From a virus, in the IMG/VR virus record IMGVR_UViG_3300020281_000010: DNA of 64,000 nucleotides; one strand, 5' to 3'. Both the position numbers and the translations under genes were made by a program. The notes under the pieces were generated by a model that ran no database searches, was not told the origin of the DNA, and worked only from the letters and a program-made list of their open reading frames with translations. Position 1 is the stretch's first letter. Each line of letters begins with the position of its first letter. Of this stretch, positions 3-60,498 are shown piece by piece.

Positions 3-3000
3 TATAAAGGTGTTTGGACTCCAGGTGAGCGTGTAACTGGTGAGGTTTCTCGTGCTTCTGGTTTGATTGACAATCTCTCAATCGCTCGTGGTACTCTTAA
101 TATTGACTCTCTAACCAACACACCTGGTCAGTTTATTGATGACGTTGGTAAACCTTCTGAGATCGTCCAGAAAATTCAGGACTCTTACTTCTATCAGAAC
201 TTCTCTTACGTTATTAAGTCTGAAACACCTATTAACCAGTGGAGAAAACCAGTTCTTGAGACAAACCACCCTGTTGGTTTTAACCTCTTCGGTGAATTGG
301 CAATCACAGGTGGTAAGGATATTTCAGGAAGAAAAGTTGTTTCTGATCTGATTAAAGAAGTTAATATCAACGCATTTACTAATATTAACCAGATTACATC
401 ATTTGCTAACGCACAACCAATCTATACTCAGTTTAACAACACTGAGGTGCTCTTCAGACAGAAGAGATTAACTAACTCTGAGGAAATTCTAACTTCTATC
501 GTTAAGAAGATTGATAACGTTTCAGATGATTTTGATGGTGTAAGAACTCAGTTCCCACTGAATGTTGAGGGTAGTTCTATCACTGCAACTGAAGATCAGA
601 TGTTTGTTCTTCTTAATGGTGTTGCACAGTCTCCTGGAGATTCATTCTCTACTTCAGGTCCTTCTATTGTGTTCTCCGAACCTCCAAAGGCACCTTCTAG
701 AATTAAGTTTAGAAATATTACCTTTGCTCAACTACAAATCACTCGTTTAACATTCAGTGTTATCGGTGGTATCTTCCCGTTGACTGGTAACAGAGTTAGA
801 GGTCTTGTTTCAGAGGCAACTGCAACTGTAATCGATTCTGGTACTGATTACATTGATGTTATTAACATTGAGGGCACTTTCCAGTCTGGTGAGTCAGTTC
901 TTAACAGTGCTACTGGATTCAACTCCACTCTTGATACTGTAAATCCTGTCACATCTAAGACTATCTTTGAACAGGGTGAGAGAATTACCAACCTACAAGG
1001 TAAGTTTGCAATTATTGAAGAAAACAACCTTGATGATGGTACTATCAACGATTCTCTAGTTGTTTCTAGAACATCTGGTACTGCTAAGTTTGAAACTGGT
1101 GAATTTGAAATCAAGTTCAACGATGTCATCTATTCTGCAAGATCTAACATTGCAGCAACTGTTTCTACTATCTCTCCTTATCAGGATGAGGTTTCAGAGC
1201 AGATCATTGATACTGTTGACTTGTCACCTTCATCTAGTTTCTTTGCTCTTGTCTTCCAGAGAGTTCCTTCAATTACATATCCGAACGTTATTCTTGATGA
1301 CATCGGTGAGACTGTTATTAACCCAACTGAACTCTATGATGCTGAGTCACCTAACAACCAAGACTTCCTAGATTTCGAATCTGTTAGAAACCAAGAGATT
1401 CGTTATGACGGTCTAGTTGGTACTGACTTTGCACCTGGCACTAACATCAGACTTAAGAAGATCTACTTCGGTAACTCATCTATTAGAACTGTACCCGACA
1501 CCCGTGCTAACAACGCTGCAGAGGCACTAGTTAAGAACGCTAAATTCATCGCTGAAGAAGCGGTGGGTAGGATGTTGGCTTTCTACCCCTCCTTTACCGT
1601 TCCTACAGGTAAAGTTAATTGTGAGGACGACATCGTTGATATGCTCAATCTAATTGCTTGGCAACTTGAGCACGATGGTAACTCTGAAGTCTGGGATGCT
1701 GCAAACTTCTATGTTCAGAACAATACCATCTATCACGTTGATGGACAGGTTCCTCAGACTGTATATGCAATGAATCAGGCGAGAGATCTCGCTAACCAGT
1801 GCATCAATATGATTGACATCACCACAGAGCACACATCATTGTCTCAGTGGAAAGATCTTACCATTACTCCTGAATATGAGGTTGTAAGTAATAGTCACGG
1901 TGACGCTAGAACCTTGTTGCTTGCTAACAAATGGTTCATTGCATATGAGTCACTTCACTATGCTAAGACCCAAAACCCAGGATATAACGTATCTGGTGGA
2001 GATGAGCATTGTCTCTCTGACATCGTAGATGTTGTTGAAGCACTTGCTTATAACGTTGCCCACGGTGGTAATGATTTCATCTGGGAAGCAACAGACAGAA
2101 TTCTTCACTACGGTGTAACATCTGGTGATAGAGACACTATTGTCAACTCCTTTACGAAGGCAAAGGCAATGTCTCTTGATATTATGAGAAATATTGCTGT
2201 TACCAAGGCAGGATCACACGGTTGGAACCAAGTAACTATTTCTATCACTGCTGACCCTGCAAACCCAACTTGTCAGGCAGTTGCTGCTTCTATCACAACA
2301 TTGATGGATATTCTCATCAATGCTCTTGGTACAACTGCATCTCCAGGAACTAGAGCAGCATTCCAAGCAGCAGTTACTCAAACTGCTCCTCAGGCAGACT
2401 ATTCACAAGGTAGAACAACAATTCCTAATGCAAACGCTTGTGTTGCTCAGACATCTGCTGTTGCAAACTTCTTCAGAATCATTACTGATACTTTACAAGA
2501 TCCTACTGGTGCTGATCCTACTACTTACCAGTGGTCTATTAGTAATGTTCCTAGAATTGCACCTGCGTACACCTTCGAAGAGGGTGAGACAATTCGTTCT
2601 ATCAAGCATTCTTATAAGGACAAATCATCTGGTGGATTCTTCAACTTCGGTCAAACACTGAAAGGTGTATCTTCAGGTGCTGTTGCAGAGATCATTGGAA
2701 CCAATGCAGGTAGTAAGTGGGTCTATACAAAGGGTGTTACTGGTTCATTCACTGATGATGAGTACATTACAAACTCCACAATCACCTATAACAACGTTAC
2801 TGTTGACAAATTGAACCCTGGAACTGGCACTGGATCACTAGAATTCAGTGGTACATCTTCTAGAATCAATCACGCTTCCAATGCTGCATTTGCATTTGGT
2901 GCTAATGATTATACCGTTGAGATGTGGATCTATCCTACAGGCGTATCTGGAACACAGAGACTCTTCGATTTCAGAACTGCATCCAGTAGTAACGCTGCTA

Positions 3001-6000
3001 CAGTGTTCTTACAGGGTACATCACTGAAGTTTGGTATTGCCACAACTGACCATATTACTGCTGCAGGTGCTATTCCTACTGCAAATCAGTGGTATCACAT
3101 TGCTGTTTCCAGAGCATCTAACATTACTAAGTTGTTTGTCAATGGTCAACCTGTTGGTTCTGATTATACTGACGCTTCTGTTTATGGTGACTCACCAATC
3201 GCTGTTGGTGCATCTTGGAACAACGGTGAGACTTTCACAGGTAACATTGATAACTTTATTGTTAGAAAAGGAACCGCCAGCTATTCTAGTGGGTTTATAC
3301 CCCCCACCGTTTACGATTTCCGTGCACTTGACATCTCATTCGGTTTCAATGGCGAAGCACCTTTCCCTGTAGAACTTGCTGCTGTTTACGCGACATATCA
3401 ACAGACTATCATCTCCTCTGCTAACGCTGATGGTGTTGAACTCTGGCGTGAAGAGATTATGACCGAGGAAATTGATGTTTCTCGTGATATTTACAGAGAT
3501 TGTGCTGATATTATTGAAAAGAACCGTTATTGGATTGCAGAAGAAGCAGTTGGTCGTATGAAGGAGAAGTATCCTGCATTCGTCATTCCAGGTGACACAG
3601 GAACATCTACTCAAGGTACTGATAAGTGTATTCGTGACACACATTCATTCATCATTCCTGCAATCGTTAATGATCTTAAATTAGGTGGTAATTTCAATAC
3701 TATCGTTGCAGGTCGTGGATATTTGGAAGGATCAGGTGCTCTGAAGCACGTTAACGGTGAACTTCTACAGTCAATCTACGCCTGGCGTGAAGTTGCCAAA
3801 CTTTGCATCGACATTATTACCAAGAATGAAGATGATTTGACTGGAGAATACACACAACGTGTTCGTATTCCTAATTACTTCTCAACTCCTGCACCTTCAG
3901 CGATCCAGACATTCATTATGGATCTTGTCGATGATATGTTGGATGTGATGGCACCTACTGGTCACAGATTCCGTGACGGTGCTGACCTTCTTTACTTCAA
4001 CCGTGCAGTGATTGCTGATGAAGCAGTCTCTATGATGGAGCAAGAATGGAACGTTATGATCAACTTTATCCAACAGGATAAGATCGACATTCCTAGCAGA
4101 GCGAAGTGTGTTAGAGATATTAGAGATCACATCGTTCCTGCTGTTGCAGGTGACCTCCTAACTGGTGGTAACTCAAATATTCAGGGTATGATTGATTCTT
4201 ACCTTGATTCACAAAGCAATATCAACTACATCGAAGATGAGTTGTTGGCAATGCTTGATGCTCTTGAGCACGTGAAGTTCCTTTCAAATAAAGCACTTCA
4301 GAACCTCTTGGTTGGTAGAAATGAGAACATTGCTAATATTGCAGGTACAACTCCTAATACTGTTGATGATTTCTATCAACTTCAGTATAGTGATCTGACT
4401 GCATACAGAAAAGAGTATGATGCTACTGTCAACTACGATCTGACTGATAGTATTATCACTGAGAGCACCTTCTATCCTCCTGATCCTAAGATCTTCCAAG
4501 GCACTCACAGAGCACTTGATTCTGCCAATATTATTGAAAGAAATGCTCGTACTATTGCTGCTGAGGCAGTTGACATTGTAACCAAGACCTCTGCATTCAA
4601 GCATTACAACTTTAGAGTTCCTGGTGGTAAGGTTCACTGTGAAGACGACATTGTTGATTTCATCAACTCTGTTGCTCACGACTTGAGATTCTCATCTAAC
4701 AGTGAAGTATATGATGCTGCAGCACTCTATCTGAATACAGATATGGGTCTTAAGCACGTCACTGGTCAGTCACAAGAGACAATCTATGCCTATAAGATGG
4801 CAAGAGATATGTCAATTCTCGCGATCCGCAATAAACTTGGGTTTACTCCCTTCGAGGATGTCAACCTTGGCGGTGGCGGACTTGGAGGCGGTGGCGGTGG
4901 TGGTGCTCCTCGCGGTGATTATGATAATAACGCTACTACTAACAAAGACTACGATGCAGGTAACGAGATCCTCAATAATTTGAGATTCATCGCTTCTACT
5001 GCTGTAGGACGTGGATATGCTCAGTATCCTAACCTTACATTTGGTGGTTATGGTTATCAGTCTTGTATCGATGATGTTATTGACATCCTTGAAGCAATGG
5101 CTTGGAACCTCAAGCACGGTGGTAATAACAAGGTTTGGTATGCAACTGAGTTCTACATTACTGATCAGAACGCTATTCAGCACATCAACTCACAGTCTAC
5201 TGAAGTTAGGTACATCTTCGAGCAGGCACGTGACATCGCTATTCAGGTGATGAGACAGCAGTTGGTTGAAGTTAATGGTTACACTGAAGGTTATGCTCAA
5301 TATGACACTACTATTACTATTGACTCTAGCAGTTCATCAACTGGTCAGTTAACTCCTACAAACGCAACTTACAATCCTGCAACAGGTGATTTGACCTTGA
5401 CTAAGACTGGTCACGGTCTAGTGGCAGGTGATGCTGTTCAGATTGCAACTTATGGATTGAAGTTTACTTGTGACTTTGATAGTAATCAATCAGAGCATAC
5501 TTATCCAAGACCTCTTGATCCTTCAAACGGTGCTCTTCTCCCCGTTACAAGTTCTACAAGTTCTACATTTACAGTCAATGTTGGTACAACTACTAACGTT
5601 AACTACGATGTAACCAACGCAATATACAATGAAACAAATGGTGATTTGTACCTTGACATCGGTACTAACAACTTAGATGTTGGTAGACATATCAAATTGC
5701 CTGATAATGCAATTACATTCACTTGCACAATGGATGGCAATGGTTCAAACCATTCATATCCTCGTTCTAGTGACTATGCATCAGGTAAATCTCTAACTGT
5801 TCTTGAGATTGGAGATTCTACATTTACTGCAACTGATGCAGCATATGTTCCTTCAACTGGTGTTCTTACACTTACAGTTCCTAACCACGGGTTCGCTAAC
5901 GGGGACAACATTCAGATTGTTAACAATTCTCTGAACTTCACTTGTGATATGGACAACAACTACACTGTTCATTCATATCCTCGTGTATCTGACCCTGCTG

Positions 6001-9000
6001 CTAACAAGTATCTTCCTGTTGGTAACGTAACTACAAATACATTCACTGTAAACGTTGGTACTACAGGTACAGTTAACTTCACTCCTACAAACGTTGCATA
6101 TAATCCTATAACAGGAAATATGGTTCTCACTTTGGGTGAAGGTCACGGTCTTGTTACTGGATCACATCTTAAGATTCAACCTAACTCACTTACATTTACT
6201 TGTGAGGAAGACGATAACGCAACCAACCACTCATATCCTAGAACTACAACTACAACTCATACAGTTACAGGTGCTGATTATGATGGTACAACTGGTATTA
6301 TGACGCTGACTATTCCTCAGCACGGGTTCTCTAATGGTGATCAAATTAAGATTGCTGACAATGGAATTACATTTACCTGTGCTCAGGATGGTAATAATAG
6401 TAACCACTCTTATCCAAGAAGCAGTGACCCTGCATCAAACTCTTGGTTGGAAATCTCTAACGTAACTGCTAATACCTTCAAGGTTCAGGTTCTCCTTTCT
6501 GATGGTATTCCTTCAACCAATGTTACTGCACATACATTTGTTTCAGCAACATCTGGTGGTGTTACTTGGAAGAAGGATAGAGCATACGATGTTCCTCTTG
6601 AAGTTACTGCTGCTACTGCAACTACAGTCACAGTCAACGTTCTTGCCTCTGGTAGAACTCCTTCAACCAATACAACTACTCACACATTCGTAAGTGCTAC
6701 AACCAACGCAATCTCTGCAGGTGGTAACTATACTCACACATTTACAAGTGCAGTTGCAGACGGGATCAGATTTAAGAATGGTCGAATCAAGGTTAATGTT
6801 AACCCTGCACCTTCTAATCAACAGTATCCTCATACATTCGTATCTGCTGTATCTAACGCTGTACAGGGTGGTGGTAACTATAACCACACATTCGTCAGTT
6901 CTACAACTAACTCAATTAGTTGGATCACAGGTGGTGGTGGAGCAACAAGATGTGCTACACAGGCATCTGCTATCACAACATTGATGGGAATTACTATAGA
7001 TCTGTTCAACAGTGGTACAAGTAACCCACAAAATTACATAGATGGCGTTGCCCGTACGTTGCCTGGCGAGTGGCCTCTAACAGGTGAGCGTGCTGCTGTT
7101 CGTGATTTGACTATTACATATGATCAGGCAGGATCTGGTGCTTGTAACGTTGAGTCTTCAACTATCAGTTCTCTCTTCGATATTGTTATCGGCGTTGTTA
7201 AAGATGCTGCTGCAGGCAATGGTAGTTACTTCACTAACCAAGGTATTACTAGAAACGCACCTGTACAGAACAACACTCTACTGTTTGGTGGTGGTACTTG
7301 CTATAACGTAACATCTGCTGCCAACGTTCTCTTTGATCTTCTTGAGGATACATTAGGATCTGCTCCTGAAATGTATCGTCAAGCATCACGTCTTATTGCA
7401 ATTAACGATCTCTACATCAATAGAGAAGCATACTATAAGACAATGAATCAGTATGCAGGATATACTGGTGATCAAACATTTGGTGATGCTATTAGAAAAG
7501 CATACATTTACGATATGTTGACAGACGGTAATGCTATGACCGTCCAGTTAATCAATAGTTGGTTTGATGCCGAGGGTAATTTCGTCGCATTCCCTAACAT
7601 CTTCAGAACCTATCTAATCTTCCACGCAGAAGCAACCACAGATATGATCACTCATATCCTTAGTGGCACTGCTCCTGAACCTGGAACTTATAATATGGAG
7701 CCTCTCTACAAAGATAGAGAGATGCGTCCAACAATGACCGCTGTACATAAGATTCAGCAGTTGTGGCATTTGGTTTATACTGCTCTTGCAGAATCTAAGT
7801 TGCCAACTGTATATCTCAAGCAAGCGATTGACGTTGGTGTTGATGTAAACTCTGATGGTTCTATCCACAAACCAAATCATCCATTCGAAGCATATGATAG
7901 AGTTAATTACACTGTCTTGGGTACAAATATTGTGGAACTTGACAGAGCGTCATACTACATCCACCCAGACACTACTTCAACCCACATCTACTTGGCAGAG
8001 TACATTGATGGACACAAACTTACATCTCTGACTCCTGGTCTCCCAGGTGAAATTCATACATTCTCTGTCGCCAGACAGACTGGTATCACTAGGATTCCGA
8101 CTACCTTTGGTGATCGTGTTATTCCTACACCTACATCTGGTGGTATTGAACCTGCTGACATCTTCTACGGAACAACATCAGGTGCATATGCTGAAGTTAT
8201 TAGAGTTCAGGATAATCTTGCTACTGTCAACTACAGAGTTAAGTATCTTCCAATCACAGTTACATCTGCTCCTGAAACATTTGTTAATGGTGAGGACATT
8301 GTTAAGACTGGTGCTACAGGTAATGCAGGTAAGATTATCGCTACCGACAACGCAACTTACATCAAAGTACAAATGACCAGTGGTGCATTTGCTGCTACTG
8401 ACAATATTGAGGGCGTAACTTCAGGTGCAACTGCTACAGTTGGCACTGGATTGCACGACAGAATTCTCGTTAACTTCAAGCAAGGTGAATTTATTGCTAC
8501 TGACATTCTTTATTCTAAGGAAGATTCAGGTAAAGCAAACGCTCTCATCGTTAGAAACAATGATGGTGCTTTGATTGATAACCAATCAGGTAGAATTACC
8601 TATGACATTGAAACTGTTAAGGGTGAATTTGCTCCTAATGACGTTATTTACGGTTCTGTTACTGATCAAATTATCGAGGTTGAATCATTCTCAGTCCTCC
8701 CAGGATTCGGTGAGTACATCCATTCTACCGAAATTACTAAGTTTACATACGCAGGATTGATCACTGATACAGGTGTTACTGACACATTCGAAGTTGGTGA
8801 TGTACTACAACTCCAAAACTCTGGTCAGTCTGTTGGTCATACCTTCGTTGTTACTGAACACGACATTCAAAATAACGAAGTTTACCTCGCAAATGAGACT
8901 GGTCGTTTCGTGAGCATTGGTGACAACCTTGGCGTCATCGCAAATGACTCAGCATATCAACTTGCTAAGATTCCACCTGGATCTAACTTCCCAAGCGTTT

Positions 9001-10502
9001 ACACATCTGGTATTACATTAGTCACACAAACTCCAACAACTGCCTACGGTAAGATTGAGAAGATCCAACAAATCGGTCTTCGCTTGATCATCCACCTTGG
9101 TGATACAAATGGAACATTTGTTAAGAATGCTCAGATTGTTGGTGACTTTGGATTCAGAGCAGCGTGTTCAGTTGCTAAGACTCTACGCGGGCGCGTGAAG
9201 AGATTCTTCAGAGGATTTGATGGTGTTCAGCAGAACTTCAAGTTGACCACTGGAAACGGTACTGCATACTTCCCAGATCCTGCAGGTCATATGATGATCT
9301 TCGTGAATGGTATTCTCCAACCTCCTGGTGGTAACAACGCTTACACAGCGTTCTCCGACAATATCCAGTTCACTGAGGCACCTGCTGTTGGATCTACATT
9401 CCACGGTGTGTACGTTGGTAAGTTGAGACAGTTGGATGACATCTCATTCGACTTCGACTCCTTGAGGAACTCCTTCAACTTGAAACTTGGTGGTGTGTTC
9501 TACTCACTTACACTGACTGACGGTGTACAGTCCAACACTATCCTTCCTGAAAACAACATCATCTGTCAGTTGAACGGTGTTATTCAGGAACCTGGAATTG
9601 GTTTTGAGATTGTTGGTTCTAGAATCATCTTCTCTGAAGTTCCTCGTGCAGGTTCAACCTTCGTTGCCTTCTCCTACATCGGTTCTGACGTTGACGTTAT
9701 CGCTGCAACTGTTGTTCCTCCTGTTGAGGCAGGTGACATTCTGCAGATCGAAGGTGAGGATGAGACTAGAGAGGTTGCTCTGATTGAATCTTCTAACTCA
9801 CTTATCACATTCGAATACTCAGGTGCTGTTAAGGGACGTAACGGTGCTGCTCTTGCAACAATCGAGAAGGGTCGTGTTACTGAGGCAATCCTTACAAACT
9901 CTGGTGATGGTTACGATTCACGTCCCAACGTGGATGTGATTTCATCTTCTGGTTTTGGTGCACGTATCAAGGCACTTGTTGGTCTCGCACGCATTGACGT
10001 GAAGAACTCAGGTCAAGGTTATGTACAACCAACTATCAACGTGAACACTACCGTTCCTGATAACTTCTTCGCACCTTCAGGTGTTGGAGTCAACGGTGGT
10101 ATTGACATCTATGATCCTAACTACGTTCCCCCAGGTGAATCTCAGGCACAAGGTGAACAGGCAATCGCTATTGAGTCACAACCAGTTAACACAACTGTTA
10201 ACCAAGGTCAAGTGGCATCCTTCACAGTCATCGCTTCTACAATCCCTGCAGGCGGCACAATCGCTTATCAGTGGCAGAAGAAGAACTACGGTGAAAGTGA
10301 TTGGAACAATATCAACGGTGCTACATCTCCCACATACACAACTCCTGTTACCACACAGGCAGATGGTGGTGATGAATTCAGATGTGGTCTCACCGCAGCG
10401 GGTGCAACACCTACACTTTCCAACTCTGCAGTTCTTACAATCAACATTGGAGCAACTACAGTGGACAACTTCAGTCCTGACCAGATCTTTGATGACAACT
10501 AA
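3..10502 (+). CDS. Giant multidomain virion structural protein (baseplate/tail-associated), 5'-truncated by the window edge
   Basis: The frame is open from position 3 (YKGVWTPGERVTGEVSRASG...), so the ORF-track start at 63 is not the true start. More than 3490 aa, Thr/Gly/Ser-rich. Contains repeated FDG...NGV.Q.PG modules, Cys-containing helical repeats, a LamG-like domain (~2820-3330), FTC...YPR beta modules and a C-terminal Ig-like domain (QPVNTTVNQGQVASF...YQWQ...FRC). Lies among T4-like baseplate genes. Confidence 0.85.
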   Translation, partial: YKGVWTPGERVTGEVSRASGLIDNLSIARGTLNIDSLTNTPGQFIDDVGKPSEIVQKIQDSYFYQNFSYVIKSETPINQWRKPVLETNHPVGFNLFGELAITGGKDISGRKVVSDLIKEVNINAFTNINQITSFANAQPIYTQFNNTEVLFRQKRLTNSEEILTSIVKKIDNVSDDFDGVRTQFPLNVEGSSITATEDQMFVLLNGVAQSPGDSFSTSGPSIVFSEPPKAPSRIKFRNITFAQLQITRLTFSVIGGIFPLTGNRVRGLVSEATATVIDSGTDYIDVINIEGTFQSGESVLNSATGFNSTLDTVNPVTSKTIFEQGERITNLQGKFAIIEENNLDDGTINDSLVVSRTSGTAKFETGEFEIKFNDVIYSARSNIAATVSTISPYQDEVSEQIIDTVDLSPSSSFFALVFQRVPSITYPNVILDDIGETVINPTELYDAESPNNQDFLDFESVRNQEIRYDGLVGTDFAPGTNIRLKKIYFGNSSIRTVPDTRANNAAEALVKNAKFIAEEAVGRMLAFYPSFTVPTGKVNCEDDIVDMLNLIAWQLEHDGNSEVWDAANFYVQNNTIYHVDGQVPQTVYAMNQARDLANQCINMIDITTEHTSLSQWKDLTITPEYEVVSNSHGDARTLLLANKWFIAYESLHYAKTQNPGYNVSGGDEHCLSDIVDVVEALAYNVAHGGNDFIWEATDRILHYGVTSGDRDTIVNSFTKAKAMSLDIMRNIAVTKAGSHGWNQVTISITADPANPTCQAVAASITTLMDILINALGTTASPGTRAAFQAAVTQTAPQADYSQGRTTIPNANACVAQTSAVANFFRIITDTLQDPTGADPTTYQWSISNVPRIAPAYTFEEGETIRSIKHSYKDKSSGGFFNFGQTLKGVSSGAVAEIIGTNAGSKWVYTKGVTGSFTDDEYITNSTITYNNVTVDKLNPGTGTGSLEFSGTSSRINHASNAAFAFGANDYTVEMWIYPTGVSGTQRLFDFRTASSSNAATVFLQGTSLKFGIATTDHITAAGAIPTANQWYHIAVSRASNITKLFVNGQPVGSDYTDASVYGDSPIAVGASWNNGETFTGNIDNFIVRKGTASYSSGFIPPTVYDFRALDISFGFNGEAPFPVELAAVYATYQQTIISSANADGVELWREEIMTEEIDVSRDIYRDCADIIEKNRYWIAEEAVGRMKEKYPAFVIPGDTGTSTQGTDKCIRDTHSFIIPAIVNDLKLGGNFNTIVAGRGYLEGSGALKHVNGELLQSIYAWREVAKLCIDIITKNEDDLTGEYTQRVRIPNYFSTPAPSAIQTFIMDLVDDMLDVMAPTGHRFRDGADLLYFNRAVIADEAVSMMEQEWNVMINFIQQDKIDIPSRAKCVRDIRDHIVPAVAGDLLTGGNSNIQGMIDSYLDSQSNINYIEDELLAMLDALEHVKFLSNKALQNLLVGRNENIANIAGTTPNTVDDFYQLQYSDLTAYRKEYDATVNYDLTDSIITESTFYPPDPKIFQGTHRALDSANIIERNARTIAAEAVDIVTKTSAFKHYNFRVPGGKVHCEDDIVDFINSVAHDLRFSSNSEVYDAAALYLNTDMGLKHVTGQSQETIYAYKMARDMSILAIRNKLGFTPFEDVNLGGGGLGGGGGGGAPRGDYDNNATTNKDYDAGNEILNNLRFIASTAVGRGYAQYPNLTFGGYGYQSCIDDVIDILEAMAWNLKHGGNNKVWYATEFYITDQNAIQHINSQSTEVRYIFEQARDIAIQVMRQQLVEVNGYTEGYAQYDTTITIDSSSSSTGQLTPTNATYNPATGDLTLTKTGHGLVAGDAVQIATYGLKFTCDFDSNQSEHTYPRPLDPSNGALLPVTSSTSSTFTVNVGTTTNVNYDVTNAIYNETNGDLYLDIGTNNLDVGRHIKLPDNAITFTCTMDGNGSNHSYPRSSDYASGKSLTVLEIGDSTFTATDAAYVPSTGVLTLTVPNHGFANGDNIQIVNNSLNFTCDMDNNYTVHSYPRVSDPAANKYLPVGNVTTNTFTVNVGTTGTVNFTPTNVAYNPITGNMVLTLGEGHGLVTGSHLKIQPNSLTFTCEEDDNATNHSYPRTTTTTHTVTGADYDGTTGIMTLTIPQHGFSNGDQIKIADNGITFTCAQDGNNSNHSYPRSSDPASNSWLEISNVTANTFKVQVLLSDGIPSTNVTAHTFVSATSGGVTWKKDRAYDVPLEVTAATATTVTVNVLASGRTPSTNTTTHTFVSATTNAISAGGNYTHTFTSAVADGIRFKNGRIKVNVNPAPSNQQYPHTFVSAVSNAVQGGGNYNHTFVSSTTNSISWITGGGGATRCATQASAITTLMGITIDLFNSGTSNPQNYIDGVARTLPGEWPLTGERAAVRDLTITYDQAGSGACNVESSTISSLFDIVIGVVKDAAAGNGSYFTNQGITRNAPVQNNTLLFGGGTCYNVTSAANVLFDLLEDTLGSAPEMYRQASRLIAINDLYINREAYYKTMNQYAGYTGDQTFGDAIRKAYIYDMLTDGNAMTVQLINSWFDAEGNFVAFPNIFRTYLIFHAEATTDMITHILSGTAPEPGTYNMEPLYKDREMRPTMTAVHKIQQLWHLVYTALAESKLPTVYLKQAIDVGVDVNSDGSIHKPNHPFEAYDRVNYTVLGTNIVELDRASYYIHPDTTSTHIYLAEYIDGHKLTSLTPGLPGEIHTFSVARQTGITRIPTTFGDRVIPTPTSGGIEPADIFYGTTSGAYAEVIRVQDNLATVNYRVKYLPITVTSAPETFVNGEDIVKTGATGNAGKIIATDNATYIKVQMTSGAFAATDNIEGVTSGATATVGTGLHDRILVNFKQGEFIATDILYSKEDSGKANALIVRNNDGALIDNQSGRITYDIETVKGEFAPNDVIYGSVTDQIIEVESFSVLPGFGEYIHSTEITKFTYAGLITDTGVTDTFEVGDVLQLQNSGQSVGHTFVVTEHDIQNNEVYLANETGRFVSIGDNLGVIANDSAYQLAKIPPGSNFPSVYTSGITLVTQTPTTAYGKIEKIQQIGLRLIIHLGDTNGTFVKNAQIVGDFGFRAACSVAKTLRGRVKRFFRGFDGVQQNFKLTTGNGTAYFPDPAGHMMIFVNGILQPPGGNNAYTAFSDNIQFTEAPAVGSTFHGVYVGKLRQLDDISFDFDSLRNSFNLKLGGVFYSLTLTDGVQSNTILPENNIICQLNGVIQEPGIGFEIVGSRIIFSEVPRAGSTFVAFSYIGSDVDVIAATVVPPVEAGDILQIEGEDETREVALIESSNSLITFEYSGAVKGRNGAALATIEKGRVTEAILTNSGDGYDSRPNVDVISSSGFGARIKALVGLARIDVKNSGQGYVQPTINVNTTVPDNFFAPSGVGVNGGIDIYDPNYVPPGESQAQGEQAIAIESQPVNTTVNQGQVASFTVIASTIPAGGTIAYQWQKKNYGESDWNNINGATSPTYTTPVTTQADGGDEFRCGLTAAGATPTLSNSAVLTINIGATTVDNFSPDQIFDDN
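1500..7480 (+). repeat. Six to seven dispersed helical repeats (A..I..N...IA.EAV ... C.[RD]D ... GGN) in the giant protein
   Basis: Core Cys codons at 1620, 2010, 3627, 4107, 4638 and 5064. A degenerate seventh copy lies near 7375 (YRQASRLIAINDLYINREAY). Confidence 0.85.
5340..6930 (+). repeat. Five beta-rich modules (A.Y...TG.L.L....HG....D.I.I.....FTC..D.N...H.YPR ... HTFVSA) in the giant protein
   Basis: Five FTC..D.N...H[ST]YPR motifs (~5466-6420) are followed by five HTF[VT]S motifs at 6531, 6681, 6735, 6831 and 6885. Confidence 0.9.
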
Positions 10503-34103: not shown

Positions 34104-34655
34104 ATGTCTGTATTAAATGTATTAGATACTACGACAGTGAGTGGATCAGGTACCGCTTATATTGTCGTCAAAACTGGTGTTGTACGGGCATATGCTGCTA
34201 GTGCTTCTTCCATTCAGTTCGATGCGGGTCCTGCTATTACCTTGGCAGCAGGCGAAGCAATTCTTCTTTCCTGTGGAAAGTCAAAGAACGTTAGTGTCCA
34301 CGCTGCGACTAACGCGGACCCTTGTGTATTCAGCGTTGGTGGGGCGGGCGTCGGTTCAGGAGCAGGAGGAAGACATACTTTTGCTGTTGGCGATTATATT
34401 CAAACAGTTGATGGTGGAGATACAAACGGATTTGGTTCCGACTTTGTATCTGCTGCTTCAGGTGGTAAAAAAGTAACTGCTGTGACTGACCTGACTATCA
34501 CAACAGATATTGATGCCTCTGGTGCAAGTGCTGCATATACTTTGAGTGATGCAGACATCATTGCAAACACAGTTCCTCAAATCCAGAGAACTGTAAAACT
34601 CACAGCAGGTTCCGCTAACGTCATCGTCGAACAAGTACAAATTGTTGGTGGTTGA
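34104..34655 (+). CDS. Hypothetical Gly/Ala/Thr-rich beta protein, probably virion-associated
   Basis: 183-aa ORF behind a late promoter, with structural-protein-like composition. Confidence 0.7.
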   Translation: MSVLNVLDTTTVSGSGTAYIVVKTGVVRAYAASASSIQFDAGPAITLAAGEAILLSCGKSKNVSVHAATNADPCVFSVGGAGVGSGAGGRHTFAVGDYIQTVDGGDTNGFGSDFVSAASGGKKVTAVTDLTITTDIDASGASAAYTLSDADIIANTVPQIQRTVKLTAGSANVIVEQVQIVGG

Positions 34656-34657
34656 TA

Positions 34658-35344
34658 ATGGAGAAGCAGGCACCTCAAAAAACTAAGGAGAATCCTAAGG
34701 ATCAAGCGATCAAGAAGACCAAGCAACTTCTAGACCGCAGGCAACTTATGATTAATCTTAGGAAGTTGCAACTCCAGAGAAAATCAGTTCAAAACAAGGG
34801 TACTACCGATATGACGCTACAAACACAATCATATGCTATACTAAGTTTCGGAGAGTTTATCTCTGAGGGTGGTCTCGCCCGTGCTATGCAAAAGTCCAAC
34901 ACCAAAGTGACTGGACATATCAGTGCTGACCGTGGATCTTCTGAAAAGGAGAACCGTAGTAAAAGAAAAGGACTTGAGAAAGACCTTAAGAAGCACGGTA
35001 TTGGTCACAAGAAAGGTGTCGGAGAATATAAATATGATTCAGGTGAGACAGGTCGTGAGGTTTCATACCACACTTCCAAACCCGACAAAATGTCGAAACG
35101 TAGATTCGGCAAGGTGATGCGTCGTCTTGGTCGTAAGCACGGACAAGAATCTGTGATTACTAAAGACAAGGACAAGTCTGCTAAACTTCACTATACAGAG
35201 AAGGGAAGCAAGGCGAAATCTGATAGCATCGGTAAAACAAAAGTCGGAAAACATCCTGAAGGATATGGTGAAACATCATCCACTAAGGTGCGTTCAGGCA
35301 AACTTCCCTCTAAATCTAAGGATAGAAAGTTTCATTATGGCTAG
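34658..35344 (+). CDS. Highly basic hypothetical protein; C-terminal part DUF3293-like; candidate head-internal protein
   Basis: ATG at 34658. Very Lys/Arg-rich. GHISADRG...N...K.L...L...G....G.G.Y....E.S...LG....QESV resembles the DUF3293-like fold (recalled, tentative). Internal SFGEFISE motif. Confidence 0.6.
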   Translation: MEKQAPQKTKENPKDQAIKKTKQLLDRRQLMINLRKLQLQRKSVQNKGTTDMTLQTQSYAILSFGEFISEGGLARAMQKSNTKVTGHISADRGSSEKENRSKRKGLEKDLKKHGIGHKKGVGEYKYDSGETGREVSYHTSKPDKMSKRRFGKVMRRLGRKHGQESVITKDKDKSAKLHYTEKGSKAKSDSIGKTKVGKHPEGYGETSSTKVRSGKLPSKSKDRKFHYG

Positions 35345-37319: not shown

Positions 37320-37829
37320 ATGAAAACTCTAAACAAAATAACGCTTGACGTTACTATCACAATTATTGACTTCCTCTACAGAGGTCGTCACTTTCCAAGA
37401 TTTTGGGTGCTTGAGGAGATCGCTCGGGCACCCTATTTTGCTTTTTTGAGCGTACTGCATTTAAGAGAATCTCTGGGACTTCGAACAGAATCCCACTTCT
37501 ATTTGATGAGAGAACACTTCGAACAGTCAGTCAATGAAACAGAACATCTTGTTTATATGGAATCTAGGGGTGGTAATTCTTATTGGATTGATCGTTTTGT
37601 TGCCCGACATCTGGTACTTATCTATTATTGGGTTAACGTGGTTTACTATTGGTTATTTCCTGTCTCTGCCTATCATCTCTCGTACCTGATTGAGAAGCAC
37701 GCTGCTGAAACTTACCGTAAGTATTTGGCATTTGTGGATGGTCAGGATACCAAGATAGAAGAGATTATGCAGGATGAAATCAATCATTCAAATGAACTAC
37801 ATAAAGCAATGGAACTGATTTTACAATGA
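37320..37829 (+). CDS. ptoX: Plastoquinol terminal oxidase (PTOX, AOX family di-iron)
   Basis: RFWVLEEIARAPYFAFLSVLHLRESLG, NETEHL..ME..GG, IEKHA.ETY and DEINH di-iron motifs. Confidence 0.95.
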   Translation: MKTLNKITLDVTITIIDFLYRGRHFPRFWVLEEIARAPYFAFLSVLHLRESLGLRTESHFYLMREHFEQSVNETEHLVYMESRGGNSYWIDRFVARHLVLIYYWVNVVYYWLFPVSAYHLSYLIEKHAAETYRKYLAFVDGQDTKIEEIMQDEINHSNELHKAMELILQ

Positions 37830-38848
37830 GAGTAGGACTAATAGGTCTAGGTCGTATGGGCGAGGGTATGTCTCGTCGTATGATGAAAGATGGTATCGAG
37901 GTTTGGGGTTACAGACGTAACTACGAGAAGGCACAAGAAGCGTATGAAAAAGGATACGTGGACGGTGTTGCTGTTGACATTGATTCTCTCGTATCACAAG
38001 TAAAACAAGGTGGTTCACCTGGCATCTTTATGATGGTTGTGCCTGCCGAAACAGTTGAGGAGACACTAAATGAGTTACTACGGTTTTGTAGTGAGGGAGA
38101 TATTATTATTGATCACGGCAATAGTAATTTTAAGGACAGTCGTAAAAGAGCAGAGCGCCTTGAAAAATTGGGCATCCAATATATTGACTGTGGTACTAGT
38201 GGTGGTGTCTTTGGTTTGGAGCGTGGATACTGTCTTATGGTTGGTGGTACAACTACAGCAGTATCTGTGTGCTCCCCCATTTTCCGCGCTCTTGCACCAG
38301 GGATGTCCGCTGCGCCCAGAACAGATAAATGGTCTAAGGCAACCAGTCCTGAATTCGGGTGGTTACATTGTGGATCTTCTGGCGCAGGTCATTTCGTGAA
38401 GATGGTTCACAATGGTGTTGAGTATGCAATGATGCAAGCATACGCTGAAGGATTTAATATCCTTCACGAAGCAAACGCAGGTTCTAAGTATGTCAAGGAA
38501 GGTGATGCTGAGGTCGCTCCTATGGAGCATCCAGAAGATTATTGCTATGACATTGACGTTGCTGAAGTTGCTGAGTTATGGCGTCGTGGTAGCGTGGTTG
38601 GTTCTTGGTTGCTTGACCTTACCGCTGATGTACTACGCGGCGATCACGAACTTAGCAAATTCGATGGGGGAGTATCAGACAGTGGTGAAGGTCGTTGGAC
38701 TGTTCACGCTGCTGTGGATCTTGGGGTACCCACTCCTACGATCAGTACAGCACTCTTTGAAAGATTCTCATCAAGAAAATTGAATGATTTTGCTAACAGA
38801 TGTCTTAATGGTATGAGGTATATGTTTGGAGGTCACAATGTTAGGTAA
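37826..38848 (+). CDS. gnd: 6-phosphogluconate dehydrogenase (short, decarboxylating)
   Basis: GLIGLGRMG, IIDHGNS, DCGTSGG, GHFVKMVHNGVEY and VSDSGEGRWT. Confidence 0.97.
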   Translation: MRVGLIGLGRMGEGMSRRMMKDGIEVWGYRRNYEKAQEAYEKGYVDGVAVDIDSLVSQVKQGGSPGIFMMVVPAETVEETLNELLRFCSEGDIIIDHGNSNFKDSRKRAERLEKLGIQYIDCGTSGGVFGLERGYCLMVGGTTTAVSVCSPIFRALAPGMSAAPRTDKWSKATSPEFGWLHCGSSGAGHFVKMVHNGVEYAMMQAYAEGFNILHEANAGSKYVKEGDAEVAPMEHPEDYCYDIDVAEVAELWRRGSVVGSWLLDLTADVLRGDHELSKFDGGVSDSGEGRWTVHAAVDLGVPTPTISTALFERFSSRKLNDFANRCLNGMRYMFGGHNVR

Positions 38849-38940
38849 TGTCTTACTATGGACATCAGTACCCTTTGTATGTGCCACCCTCGCATTTGCT
38901 AGATATAGGGGTGAAATATCGTATTATGAATCATCAGACT

Positions 38941-40290
38941 ATGAAGGAAACGGAACCGCTCACTAAAGGCATTGTAATTTTTGGTGCTACTGGTGACCTT
39001 TGTAAGAAAAAGTTAATTCCCGCACTCTACAAACTATGGGAAAAAGAATTGCTGCCAGATCACTTCGTTATCACAGGTGCAGCACGACGAGTGAGGACAA
39101 CACAACAATGGATTAAAAGTCTGGGTATGGAATATCCAGAAGAGTTCTGCAGGATGTTGGACTATCAATCGTGTGATCTGGAGCACGTCGAGTCCCTACA
39201 AAAATTACCAAATTATTTGGATGATAACACCTACTTCCTTTCTGTACCACCAGAGCGTTACGAAAGTGCGATCACTAATCTCAAAGATGCAGGTTTACTT
39301 GAAGACCCCGATCAAAGTCGATTGGTTATCGAGAAACCCTTTGGGCACGATTATAAATCTGCTGATCGTTTACAGTCTGTGGTGGAGCGATCTTTACGCG
39401 AGAAACAAGTTTATCGCATTGACCATTATCTTGGCAAAGATACTGTTAACAATATACTTGCTACTCGATTCAGTAATATACTTCTCGAACCACTTTGGAA
39501 TAGGAATTACATAGAAGAGGTACAGATCTTTGCAACTGAAACTATCGGTTGTGATGGTCGTGCACAATACTATGACACAGCAGGTGCTGTCAGAGATATG
39601 CTGCAGAATCATATGATGCAGTTACTTGCTCTGATTGCAATGGAACCTCCTTGTCGTTTGAGTTCTACAGAGATTCGTAGAGAGAAGACAAAGGTTCTTG
39701 CTGCTGCACGTCTGGGTCAGAAGTTGGTTCTTGGTCAATATATTGGATACCAAGATGAAGAGGGTGTTGCACAACACACTAAAACACCAACGTTTGCCTC
39801 TGGCGATATTTACATTGATAACTGGAGATGGCAGGGTGTTCCTTTCTACTTTATGACTGGTAAGAAGATGCCTTATCAGTGTGTAGAGATCGTTATCAAA
39901 CTCAAAGAACCACCTCAGGTTCTATTCGAAGGACATAAATTTAATGATCGTATTGTAATCAGACTACAACCAACACCACACTTGGATATTCGTATGGATA
40001 TGAAAGCACCAGGTTTGGGTGAAGAGGTTGAGACTGCTACATTGACTCATCCATATCCAACAGAGAACTCTATTGATGGATATGAGAGATTGTTGTTTGA
40101 AGCAATCAATGGCAATCAATCACACTTTGTACACGCAGAGGAGATCATTGAGTCTTGGCGTATTGTGGATGATTTGATTTGTACTGGTGAGAAATGTCCT
40201 ATCCGTACTACACCTTACATCTATCATCAGGGTTCTTGGGGTCCACAACACAAGACAGAGTTTATTACTAACTGGGATTATCCACAATGA
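38941..40290 (+). CDS. zwf: Glucose-6-phosphate 1-dehydrogenase
   Basis: IFGATGDLCKKKLIPALY, EKPFG, YRIDHYLGK, RDMLQNH and RWQGVPFY..TGK. The start is uncertain (in-frame ATGs at 38848, 38926 and 38941). Confidence 0.97.
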   Translation: MKETEPLTKGIVIFGATGDLCKKKLIPALYKLWEKELLPDHFVITGAARRVRTTQQWIKSLGMEYPEEFCRMLDYQSCDLEHVESLQKLPNYLDDNTYFLSVPPERYESAITNLKDAGLLEDPDQSRLVIEKPFGHDYKSADRLQSVVERSLREKQVYRIDHYLGKDTVNNILATRFSNILLEPLWNRNYIEEVQIFATETIGCDGRAQYYDTAGAVRDMLQNHMMQLLALIAMEPPCRLSSTEIRREKTKVLAAARLGQKLVLGQYIGYQDEEGVAQHTKTPTFASGDIYIDNWRWQGVPFYFMTGKKMPYQCVEIVIKLKEPPQVLFEGHKFNDRIVIRLQPTPHLDIRMDMKAPGLGEEVETATLTHPYPTENSIDGYERLLFEAINGNQSHFVHAEEIIESWRIVDDLICTGEKCPIRTTPYIYHQGSWGPQHKTEFITNWDYPQ

Positions 40291-55328: not shown

Positions 55329-55811
55329 ATGGCATTAATGGCAGCACGGAGAACTAAAAATCAGCACTATGTAGATAACCAGAAGTTCCTTGCTGCTATC
55401 GTGGATTATCGTGACCGTGTAGAGATTGCTAAAGTTCGTAATAAACCCAAACCTAGGATCAATGAATACATTGGAGAGTGTTTCCTAAAGATCGCAACCC
55501 ACCTTTCATATAGACCTAACTTCATCAACTATATGTACAAGGAGGATATGATCAGTGATGGCATTGAGAATTGTGTTCAGTATATTGACAATTTCGATCC
55601 TGCTAAAAGCAGGAATCCTTTTGCATATTTTACTCAAATCGTTTACTATGCATTCCTAAGAAGGATTGCTAAAGAGAAGAGACAGATGGATATTAAAGAT
55701 AAGATTATTGAGAAGTCAGGTTTTGATCAGGTCTTCCACTCTGATGGTGATGGAGATACTGCACAACTGAATAGTATCAAGTCCCGTATTGAGATGAACA
55801 ATCGTTACTAA
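55329..55811 (+). CDS. g55: Late-transcription sigma factor gp55
   Basis: HYVDNQKFL, EYIGECFLKIATHLSYRPNFINYMYKEDMISDGIENC.QY..NFDP.KS.NPFAYFTQI.YYAFLRRI.KEK. Confidence 0.98.
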   Translation: MALMAARRTKNQHYVDNQKFLAAIVDYRDRVEIAKVRNKPKPRINEYIGECFLKIATHLSYRPNFINYMYKEDMISDGIENCVQYIDNFDPAKSRNPFAYFTQIVYYAFLRRIAKEKRQMDIKDKIIEKSGFDQVFHSDGDGDTAQLNSIKSRIEMNNRY

Positions 55812-56482
55812 TGATTATCGATCAACTTGCATCTGTCATTCGCTTTGCGATTGAAGATCTAGATGCTGTACAAGTTGAAACAGATTATGAAGAAATTATC
55901 AAAGATGATCTTGTCATAAAGAATGAGATCTACAAGTGTGAAGGTCTTCGTAAGTTACACCTTGAAATAGCAAAGACAGATAAACTAGATGTACTCCACT
56001 GTGTATTCTTCCCAGACTTCGAGTACCCTATACCTATTTTTGGTGCAGACATTATTGCAACTAGGAATACAGTCACTGCTGCTATTGTAGATGTTTCTCC
56101 TGTACATAATACTGGTAACATTTACTACAGTATAGCACCACTAGCAAACTCATATCATTTTACGCACAAGAGACCACTACCACTATGGGGTGAGATCTTC
56201 TCTCCATTCTGTAAGTTTCAGAGATTACATCTTCAGAATGAGCAACAGGATTTTATTAACTTGGTCAATAACATTCTTCTGATATATTGTGACTGGGTGA
56301 AGAGATCTAAAAAGGATGACAAGTGGGTGAATAATATGTTAAGATTGGATGACCAGATCTGGTACTGTAAATCCCAGAAACAAAACAAGAAGACTCTTGC
56401 AGTTCTGACCCAATGGTTTGGTAAAGAGTTTGCAGAGAAATACATCGATAAGATGCTCTTCGATACACCTAGACTCAAATGA
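55811..56482 (+). CDS. pcyA: Phycocyanobilin:ferredoxin oxidoreductase
   Basis: RKLHLEIA, LDVLHCVFFP, P.P.FGADI, AAIVD.SP, LPLWGEIFSPF and Q..YC..QKQN.KT..VL..WF...AE.Y....LFD. Confidence 0.9.
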   Translation: MIIDQLASVIRFAIEDLDAVQVETDYEEIIKDDLVIKNEIYKCEGLRKLHLEIAKTDKLDVLHCVFFPDFEYPIPIFGADIIATRNTVTAAIVDVSPVHNTGNIYYSIAPLANSYHFTHKRPLPLWGEIFSPFCKFQRLHLQNEQQDFINLVNNILLIYCDWVKRSKKDDKWVNNMLRLDDQIWYCKSQKQNKKTLAVLTQWFGKEFAEKYIDKMLFDTPRLK

Positions 56483-58201: not shown

Positions 58202-59920
58202 ATGATTGTATTTGAGAAACTTCGATGGCGAAATTTTTTATCAACTGGAAATAATTTTACTGAACTAGATCTCATCGATACTTCCTCAACTCTTGTTGTT
58301 GGTCCTAACGGTGCAGGTAAGTCAACGATGTTGGATGCCCTGTGTTTTGGATTGTTCAATAGACCTTTTCGTAAGGTGTCCAAATCACAGTTGGTAAATA
58401 CTATCAACGAAAGAGATACCCTCGTTGAGATAGACTTTAGTATTGGATCTGTTTCGTACAAAGTCGTACGAGGGATGAAACCTAATGTATTTGAGATTTG
58501 GAGAAATGGTTCCCTCGTGGATCAAGACGCTGCCAATCGAGACTATCAAAAATACCTTGAACAATCAATACTTAAACTTAACTTCAAGTCTTTCACTCAA
58601 GTTGTTATACTTGGAAGTTCAACTTTTGTTCCTTTTATGCAGTTGTCTGCACCGCATCGAAGGGAGGTTATCGAAGATCTACTGGACATTCAGATCTTCT
58701 CGCAAATGAATATGCTCCTCAAGGAGCGGATGAAAGATAATAGAGAACAACTGAAAGAGTGTGAACATCAGTTGCAACTTGCAGAACAAGCAATCAACGC
58801 TCAAAAGAAAACTGTTGATAAGTTGTCAGCAGTAAATGATGAGCGTATTACTAGACAGCAAGAAAAATTCAAAGAGAATGAAGATAGAATGATGGAGATC
58901 AAAGGAGAGATCTCTCTCATTGAAACTCGTGTGGTCGGACTCAAGTCTATGCAAGAGGAGTTGCTGAAGCACGAAGGTATGCTGATGAAGCAAAATAAAA
59001 TCAAATCTAAACTGGAAGACAAAGGTAAGAAGTCTCTCAAAGATAAAGCATTCTTTGAAAAGAATACAACCTGTCCTACCTGCTCTCAGGACATTGAAGA
59101 ATCATTTAGAAATATGAAGGTTTCTATCTATTCAGAGAAATACGAAGAGATGCGTAAGGCAGTGTCTGAACTTGACACACAGATTGCAGATACTATGTCA
59201 CTTTGTACAAGCATTCGGAAAGAGACAGATCAACTCACTGAAGATCAATTTGAGATCCGCCGTTTGTATAACGAAGAAAAGAATTTGATGAAGGAGAACA
59301 GTGAGATCTTATCTCACGTTCAACGTCTAAATACATTGCCTGACATCAAGAAGGAGAGAGATCAACTAGTTGTACTCCAACAAACTTATGACGAGAAGGA
59401 AGAATCTTGTTCTAAAGTTACAAAGGAAACCTTGGATTACAAACTGGTTGGTAACCTCCTCAAGGACGGTGGTATCAAGGCAAAGATTATCTCAAAATAT
59501 ATTCCTATCATCAACCAAAGGATCAATAAGTACCTAGGTGATATGGATACCTTCGTGAATTTTACCCTTGACGAAGAGTTCAGTGAGGTGATAAAGTCTC
59601 GACATCGCGACAAGTTCTCCTATGCCTCATTCTCTGAAGGCGAAAAGCAGAAGATTGATCTGTCACTCCTATTCACTTGGAGATACGTTGCGAAACTAAA
59701 AAACTCTGTTGCCACTAATCTCCTCATCCTAGATGAGGTATTTGATTCATCACTAGATAATCAAGCAACTGATGAACTCTTAAAAATTCTTAAGAGTCTA
59801 GGTAGTGAAACAAACTTCTTTGTTATCTCACATAAAGGTGAGGTTCTTCAAGATAAGTTTGAAAAACAAATCCGTTTTGAAAAGATCAACGGTTTTAGTA
59901 AATCATTCAGTTACGAATAA
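58202..59920 (+). CDS. g46: Recombination ATPase subunit gp46 (Rad50/SbcC-like)
   Basis: WRNFLSTGN, GPNGAGKST, CPTC zinc hook, FSEGEKQKIDL, LILDEVFD and VISH. Confidence 0.98.
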   Translation: MIVFEKLRWRNFLSTGNNFTELDLIDTSSTLVVGPNGAGKSTMLDALCFGLFNRPFRKVSKSQLVNTINERDTLVEIDFSIGSVSYKVVRGMKPNVFEIWRNGSLVDQDAANRDYQKYLEQSILKLNFKSFTQVVILGSSTFVPFMQLSAPHRREVIEDLLDIQIFSQMNMLLKERMKDNREQLKECEHQLQLAEQAINAQKKTVDKLSAVNDERITRQQEKFKENEDRMMEIKGEISLIETRVVGLKSMQEELLKHEGMLMKQNKIKSKLEDKGKKSLKDKAFFEKNTTCPTCSQDIEESFRNMKVSIYSEKYEEMRKAVSELDTQIADTMSLCTSIRKETDQLTEDQFEIRRLYNEEKNLMKENSEILSHVQRLNTLPDIKKERDQLVVLQQTYDEKEESCSKVTKETLDYKLVGNLLKDGGIKAKIISKYIPIINQRINKYLGDMDTFVNFTLDEEFSEVIKSRHRDKFSYASFSEGEKQKIDLSLLFTWRYVAKLKNSVATNLLILDEVFDSSLDNQATDELLKILKSLGSETNFFVISHKGEVLQDKFEKQIRFEKINGFSKSFSYE

Positions 59921-60498
59921 TGTTTAGTCATCCATTTTTTACTAGTAACAATGGGTATGCCAAGCACGATGAGTTGAAGTTTGATCTTCTAGAAAATCGT
60001 GACAAGATCTGTCAAGATTACAATATTTTCTATGGCACTGGGTACTCAACTGTTCATACTAACCCTGAATATCATCTATTGTATCCAGACTTTGCAGATT
60101 GGGTACTCCAGAATATTCACCCTTTTGATGAAGAACTCCAGATTGAGCAGATGTGGGTCAACGTCAATCCTAAAGGTGGGTTCCAAATGCGTCACAACCA
60201 CGCAGATGCAGATATGGCAGGGACTTACTATGTCAAGGTACCACCAGGCGACACTGGAGACATATATTTCTATCATCCCAACCATACTGTCGAAACGTTA
60301 AATAGAATACAACCTTATTGGGCATACACACATTGTCAGATCCCAAGAGAGCGTGATCTATACTTCTGGCCAGGTTATAATGACCACGAAGTCAGGCAAA
60401 ATTATGAGAACCAAGAACGATGGTCAATCAGTTTTACTTTGAAAATACCCCAGAAAGTCCGAGAAGTAAGATTTCCAAATTTACCCAAGACTTCCTAA
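59920..60498 (+). CDS. Putative 2OG-Fe(II) oxygenase (TIGR02466-like)
   Basis: MWVN.NPKGG...HNH...MAG.YY..VP..D.GDI.F...and L.FWP....H.V..N.....R.SISF. Confidence 0.75.
   Translation: MFSHPFFTSNNGYAKHDELKFDLLENRDKICQDYNIFYGTGYSTVHTNPEYHLLYPDFADWVLQNIHPFDEELQIEQMWVNVNPKGGFQMRHNHADADMAGTYYVKVPPGDTGDIYFYHPNHTVETLNRIQPYWAYTHCQIPRERDLYFWPGYNDHEVRQNYENQERWSISFTLKIPQKVREVRFPNLPKTS

Follow-up and report, generated by a model that had tools for sequence, protein, structure and literature searches.

Phycobiliproteins (PBPs) are known as antenna proteins of the cell. Among the described systems closest to the one reported here are the PBP beta subunits (CpeB, CpcB and the cryptophyte beta chains) and the core-membrane linker ApcE, a part of the cellular antenna that holds one PBP-fold domain within a large multidomain protein. 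ApcE attaches its bilin without a lyase, has its Cys at another position and carries a long insertion between helices B and E of this domain. Here we describe the same fold as a large family of virion-protein domains with strongly conserved bilin-site residues. It is traced from a window of 64,000 nucleotides of the virus record IMGVR_UViG_3300020281_000010, in which a single giant open reading frame (ORF; 3..10502, + strand, as for all of its parts below) encodes six clear helical repeats of about 100 residues and a degenerate seventh. Judged from sequence profiles and predicted structures, these repeats are true relatives of PBPs and derived from them. An initial annotation of the DNA had proposed six to seven degenerate globin-fold PBP domains recruited into a virion protein, and both the number and the identity of these domains hold up in the analyses presented here.

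The ORF is one open frame of 3499 residues whose 5' end is open at the window start. It corresponds to the C-terminal part of a giant protein that comprises 6919 residues in the close relative G001, and every repeat copy sits in the C-terminal half covered by the window. It lies in what is probably the gp7 position, upstream of genes for a YHYH protein, a gp9/10-like protein with the gp9/10 N-terminal domain and gp8, while two more giant ORFs and neck proteins are encoded nearby. The virion structural protein families phrog_701 and phrog_18802 match the giant ORF, phrog_2885 (baseplate wedge subunit) matches it at residues 8-178 of the window part only, and no Pfam gp7 model matches it. Homologues in isolates have been labelled gp7, baseplate wedge (initiator), structural protein or tail fibre by their depositors. 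The virus is a T4-like cyanomyovirus, with a major capsid protein nearest to that of Synechococcus phage S-WAM1 (83 % identity by tblastn, 87 % in the tree alignment), and the PBP-like repeats belong to its giant baseplate-region virion protein. The genomic position beside gp8 and the gp9/10-like gene is shared with the T4 gp7-type baseplate wedge proteins of cyanomyoviruses; to our knowledge, no part of T4 gp7 has been reported to hold a PBP-like domain.

A profile built from the repeats detects six full copies at 114-140 bits each. Core 1 (1503..1805, helices A to G) carries the first-site motif NCEDD at 1617, core 2 (1890..2189) HCLSD at 2007, core 3 (3489..3821) KCIRD at 3624, core 4 (3963..4301) KCVRD at 4104, core 5 (4506..4829) HCEDD at 4635 and core 6 (4941..5255) SCIDD at 5061. 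All motifs read in the initial annotation are present, its coordinates being those of the Cys codons. The seventh, degenerate core (7374..7589) was found by the family-wide profile with an expectation value (E) of 5.7e-5 and has lost the Cys, the Arg and the Asp of the site. No other copy was detected when the six reading frames of the window were scanned with the profile. Sequence identity between the best copy and the other repeats ranges from 20 to 34 %, and N13, I17, A18, C48, D51 and N69 are invariant, a likeness far beyond chance. Cys and Asp are kept in six of the seven cores, while the full C-x-R-D site occurs only in cores 3 and 4; cores 1, 2, 5 and 6 read C-x-(D/S)-D. Core 3, which also has a B-E loop of PBP length, is the copy most like PBPs.

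Homology to PBPs was tested by profile-to-sequence searches in both directions. The Pfam model PF00502 reaches 35.3 bits on the whole protein (gathering cut-off 22.2) and, on single cores, 23.7 bits on core 3 and 15.3 bits on core 1, the latter below the cut-off. On relative G001 it scores 21.9-22.5 bits, and seven metagenomic homologues carry a precomputed match to it. Core 3 alone retrieved 19 weak matches among PDB sequences, 18 of them PBPs, in alignments that are ungapped over 50 residues and place its Cys on Cys82/84. The six-copy window profile returned PBPs in 55 of 57 PDB matches (best E 1.2e-3), and a profile of the complete inner domain in 52 of 54, mostly beta subunits (best E 2.6e-3). 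A broad profile of 45 copies, very divergent ones included, gave 87 matches, with PBPs making up all 60 among the matches listed and a best E of 8.6e-5. The first-site Cys falls on Cys82/84 of PBPs with all three repeat profiles. One might still argue that the likeness is convergent or a matter of chance and that the repeats represent an unrelated helical family: the single-sequence E of core 3 against PBPs is marginal (0.028), middling structural scores are common for helical folds, and some family members lack a PF00502 match. We consider this explanation highly improbable, as three independent profiles, Pfam and two structure aligners rank PBPs first and almost alone, with Cys on Cys82/84, and as significance improves with the broader profile, which speaks for homology and not for chance.

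The predicted structure leads to the same proteins. Core 3 was modelled with AlphaFold2 as 166 residues including flanks, using a 45-row alignment, which gave six helices at a predicted local distance difference test (pLDDT) of 86.3 and a predicted template modelling score (pTM) of 0.84. The best 50 Foldseek matches of this model in the PDB are all PBPs, with a template modelling (TM) score of about 0.70 over about 156 columns. VIA-align, run against 48,161 representative chains, superposed it on phycoerythrin beta with Z 15.8 and a root-mean-square deviation (rmsd) of 2.8 Å over 152 residues, on far-red allophycocyanin with Z 14.5 and on the bilin domain of ApcE with Z 14.0; other globin-fold proteins stay at Z 11.8 or below. 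Among the latter, the sensor domains (RsbR N-domain, globin-coupled sensors, bilin domain of photocobilin) share the general fold at Z 10.2-11.8, but they score below PBPs and show neither a sequence signal nor the C-x-R-D motif. RsbRD_N clusters also turned up as language-model look-alikes of the phage domain (score 0.88), which we take as a lead only.

The structure alignment spans PBP residues 25-184 and thereby helices A to H. The repeats are accordingly modelled as a globin-like PBP fold of helices A, B, E, F', G and H without the N-terminal X-Y hairpin: profile and structure alignments alike begin at PBP residues 25-35, the model starts at helix A, and some relatives have one core placed immediately behind another, leaving no space for a hairpin. 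As far as computation goes, fold and homology can be regarded as established. The phage domains share with PBP beta subunits the globin-like fold from helix A to H, the register N..(I)..A..P..PGG..C.(R)D..Y.L..GG in helices B and E, the Cys on Cys82/84, the Asp on Asp87 and a second Cys just before helix H, as at beta-153/155. They differ from them in lacking the X-Y hairpin and with it alpha-beta pairing, in being embedded and nested in a virion protein of about 6900 residues, in a sequence identity of only about 15 %, in the replacement of Arg86 in four of the six full window copies, and in that their chromophore is putative. Assembly into (alpha-beta)3 discs is unlikely because the hairpin is absent and the domains are covalently nested.

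This nesting became apparent from an AlphaFold2 model of window residues 495-850, which comprises cores 1 and 2 together with two further helices (pLDDT 80.4, pTM 0.70). Allophycocyanin aligns to residues 1..338 of the model, with 123 residues superposed at 2.1 Å that correspond to core 1 plus the last helix, whereas ApcE aligns to residues 134..288 at 2.2 Å, corresponding to core 2 plus the first helix. Domain 2 is thus placed in the loop that joins helices G and H of domain 1, core 1 being the outer and core 2 the inner domain of this first nest. The H helix of core 2 lies at 2259..2345 and starts with the conserved Cys757 (codon 2271; C263, invariant in the alignment), while helix H of core 1 lies at 2427..2513 and starts with Cys813 (codon 2439). 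The models therefore show PBP-like domains in which the later domain sits within the G-H loop of the earlier one, so that a run of n cores is completed by n H helices further on.

The same arrangement recurs in relatives, where n cores precede n short Cys-capped helices, about 36 residues apart where packing is close. The distance from the innermost (last) core to the first such helix is constant at 28-32 residues in 22 of the 23 relatives for which the sampled segment extends that far. In the window, cores (C) and Cys-capped helices (h) come in the order C C h h C C C C h h h. A further helix H, without a Cys, belongs to core 3 and lies at 3897..3950 (model helix 145-162); the VIA alignment runs up to it, reaching the end of the phycoerythrin beta chain, but the Cys-helix profile does not pick it up. 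From the element order and the equal counts of cores and helices in relatives, we infer that the three Cys-capped helices at 6939..7373 (Cys codons 6951, 7143 and 7299) belong to cores 6, 5 and 4, respectively, and that these cores form a three-deep nest with core 4 as the outer and core 6 as the innermost domain. By analogy to the junction at core 2, an array of beta repeats of about 540 residues (5310..6932; repeat of about 85 residues, motif FTC..D....H.YPR; tail-fibre families phrog_5342 and phrog_1276) would then interrupt the G-H loop of core 6, ahead of its Cys-capped helix H. The "second Cys helices" of the initial annotation are hence displaced H helices, and each of them pairs with a core far upstream, a point that had been missed. 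ApcE, with a Z of 14.0 and rmsd values of 2.2-3.0 Å, resembles the phage protein in placing a PBP-fold domain with a long insertion inside a large multidomain protein, and its lyase-free attachment shows that such an embedded domain can be chromophorylated. In contrast to the phage protein it is a cellular antenna part with one such domain and keeps its allophycocyanin contacts, while the phage domains carry their insertions in the G-H loop and occur in arrays.

In an exhaustive profile search of 1.84 billion representatives we detected 1022 proteins or clusters with the domain, 655 of them at E <= 1e-10. Many are giant, with up to 34 matched stretches per protein, and databases label them only "structural", "tail" or "hypothetical". 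The 187 proteins with the highest scores contributed 1017 near-full copies, over which conservation was counted. It is highest at N13 (92 %), C41 (97 %), R43 (89 %), D44 (100 %) and D55 (94 %), along with N61 (83 %), Y71 (99 %), Q/E84 (96 %) and T88 (82 %). The bilin-site triad thus tops the conservation among copies that are otherwise just 20-35 % identical. The family consensus K-C-x-R-D-(V/I)-G-Y ... Y-x-L-x-x-G-G runs in what we take to be the register of helix E in C-phycocyanin alpha (CpcA).

Across 50,697 phage records, the domain is confined to phages of Synechococcus and Prochlorococcus and one single-cell uncultured "marine virus"; 337 records were matched with the window query and 146, under the same restriction, with a query from a very divergent uncultured contig. 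About 470 of the phage records are cyanomyoviruses by their major capsid protein, whereas about 390 non-cyanophage relatives from the capsid-protein search, Sinorhizobium phage phiM12 included, gave no domain matches. A viral structure library likewise returned only cyanophage proteins, named "structural", "tail" or "uncharacterized". This divergent contig is T4-like and of marine origin (L017:5567-18721), and its 4384-residue protein has 21 tightly packed cores with a period of about 108 residues and no detectable Cys-capped H helices. The gp13 of this contig is nearest to that of Microcystis phage Mel-JY01 (50 %) and then to that of Flavobacterium phage immuto (40 %), neither of which carries the domain. 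Another contig, L016 (NZAB01000134.1), is filed under a metagenome-assembled genome of Porticoccaceae; its homologue of the giant protein is followed by YHYH, gp9/10, gp8 and DUF4815 genes as in the window, and it is probably a wrongly binned cyanomyovirus contig. Full-text literature searches found no published description of PBP-like domains in virion proteins.

A restriction to cyanophages and an origin in the host antenna would also suit a module for host interaction, in which the domains mimic host PBPs to bind linkers, lyases, NblA or proteases while carrying no pigment, and the missing X-Y hairpin, which makes normal alpha-beta monomers impossible, agrees with it. We nevertheless regard such mimicry as quite unlikely: phycobilisomes lie in the cytoplasm, while the cell surface is what a baseplate protein encounters, and mimicry should conserve surfaces, while the part conserved here is the buried bilin-site triad.

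The best-supported functional reading is that the pocket equivalent to that of Cys84 has kept its capacity for a ligand, in all likelihood a bilin. The residues conserved in it are precisely the ones by which PBPs hold their bilin, and we give this reading a probability of roughly 0.45. The bilin would come from the host or from the phage's own PcyA and would be attached inside the infected cell before assembly, so that a virion might bear a few dozen chromophores at its baseplate, which could serve light sensing during adsorption or photoprotection.

A serious rival, and a real possibility in our view, is purely structural reuse, by which the PBP fold was captured once and turned into a rigid helical block of the baseplate or fibre that tolerates G-H insertions and needs no chromophore, the conserved Cys, Arg and Asp acting in folding, disulfides, metal binding or interdomain contacts. 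Arrays of up to 34 copies within giant structural proteins fit it well, as do the interleaving of the domains with lectin-like and beta-repeat modules, the decay of the site in the lineage of the window and the many phages that have the domain but lack a bilin reductase. On the other hand, the equivalents of Cys84, Arg86 and Asp87 are best conserved across 1017 otherwise diverged copies, and we know of no structural role of these residues in PBPs beyond holding the bilin. An intradomain disulfide is unlikely as well, since going by phycocyanin geometry the two Cys positions are expected to lie far apart in the PBP fold. Structural reuse further leaves the co-occurrence of the domain with the lyase CpeT, to which we turn below, without explanation.

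In the model, the second Cys directly caps the N-terminal end of helix H, where beta-153/155 is found in PBP beta subunits; this match is positional, or topological, only. T-type lyases are specific for Cys-beta155 (PMC2327270), which makes phage CpeT, a T-type lyase, a candidate enzyme for the Cys atop helix H. We scored the domain, CpeT and a bilin reductase in 17 cyanomyoviruses of different genera. Domain and CpeT occur together in twelve of them, the domain without CpeT in one (ACG-2014f), CpeT without the domain in none, and both are missing from four (P-SSM2, RB11-B, S-SM2 and S-H34; Fisher p 0.002). In S-MbCM100 (NC_023584.1 13426-13854) the CpeT-like frame has a TAA stop within the match, and the gene may be broken or split. 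The window itself encodes PcyA (phycocyanobilin:ferredoxin oxidoreductase; 55811..56482), as had been annotated, with an NCBIfam equivalog match of 225 bits (cut-off 206). Relative G001 lacks heme oxygenase.

Light-dependent attachment offers a possible context. P-HM1 and P-HM2 adsorb only in the light, while P-SSM2 adsorbs in the dark (PMC6628666), and adsorption of S-PM2 is cited there as light-dependent (Jia et al. 2010, as cited in PMC6628666). The domain profile has 11 matches in S-PM2, 6 in P-HM2 and none in P-SSM2, which also lacks CpeT; this comparison covers three phages only and is a lead. Taken furthest, the virion would possess its own bilin photoreceptor, with chromophorylated nested domains, CpeT acting on the helix-H Cys and a light sensor at the baseplate that gates adsorption. 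This would account for the light-only attachment of P-HM1, P-HM2 and S-PM2 and for the retention of a T-type lyase, but we rate it as unlikely.

Several observations weigh against a bilin-bearing pocket. In the window, the Arg is gone from four of the six full cores and the seventh core is without the entire site, and one orthologue of core 3 has no Cys. The profile of the Cys-capped helix alone (29 positions) found no PBP among its seven weak matches in the PDB, leaving the link of the second site to beta-153/155 without backing from sequence statistics. The Cys-capped H helix is moreover limited to the cyanomyovirus subfamily; in family members with more than 20 arrayed copies the profile detected no such helices. 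Of the earlier claim that both bilin-attachment Cys positions are present, the first site is solid, whereas the second stands as a positional, subfamily-limited correspondence. The PBP signal itself fades in divergent members: those with more than 20 copies score little or nothing with PF00502, which finds nothing on the 21-copy protein and gives 16.8 bits on a 24-core protein. As for CpeT, three of the four genera without domain and lyase form one capsid-protein clade that adjoins ACG-2014f in the tree, so the association rests on about two independent events, and ACG-2014f itself has the domain without CpeT. A general link to PcyA had to be dropped, since only five of 13 genomes with the domain encode a bilin reductase (18 genomes checked) and P-SSM2 has the reductase without the domain. 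Finally, we found no report of pigmented cyanophage particles in the literature.

The giant ORF and the rest of the window hold further features. Between the first and second nests, the giant protein holds a Laminin_G_3/concanavalin-like (lectin-like) domain (2865..3257; PF13385, 70.3 bits), and a Hoc/Ig-like module stands at its C-terminus (10149-10442; phrog_613, phrog_4069). Other neighbouring genes are those for gp15, terminase, sheath, tube, portal and major capsid protein. Auxiliary genes comprise PTOX, gnd, zwf and the pcyA gene described above. The first three form a metabolic block at 37320-40290 for plastoquinol terminal oxidase (AOX family), 6-phosphogluconate dehydrogenase and glucose-6-phosphate dehydrogenase. 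No cyanobacterium is among the 80 best genome matches of the zwf product, which is 35-40 % identical to proteins of Bacteroidota, Bacillota and Proteobacteria. At 59920-61055, two overlapping ORFs of 192 and 211 residues each match the 2OG-Fe(II) oxygenase family PF13759, which may reflect either two genes in tandem or a duplication with a frameshift. An ORF at 34652-35344 shows a weak match to the S-adenosylmethionine lyase family that is above the cut-off (34.6 bits against 28).

What is new here is the nesting of the domains, the family-wide conservation of the bilin site, the restriction to cyanophages among isolates and the co-occurrence with CpeT. Should the domains bind no bilin, they would still clearly document that viruses captured a light-harvesting fold of their hosts and rebuilt it into nested arrays with a structural role, and they would offer a useful example of how domains can be inserted at a single loop. 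If a bilin is bound, the particles would carry pigment, a phage substrate would be at hand for the so far unexplained phage lyase CpeT, and the long-standing puzzle of light-dependent adsorption would gain a molecular candidate. With six of the seven cores keeping the Cys and Asp of the attachment site, pigment on a virus particle is now a testable proposition.

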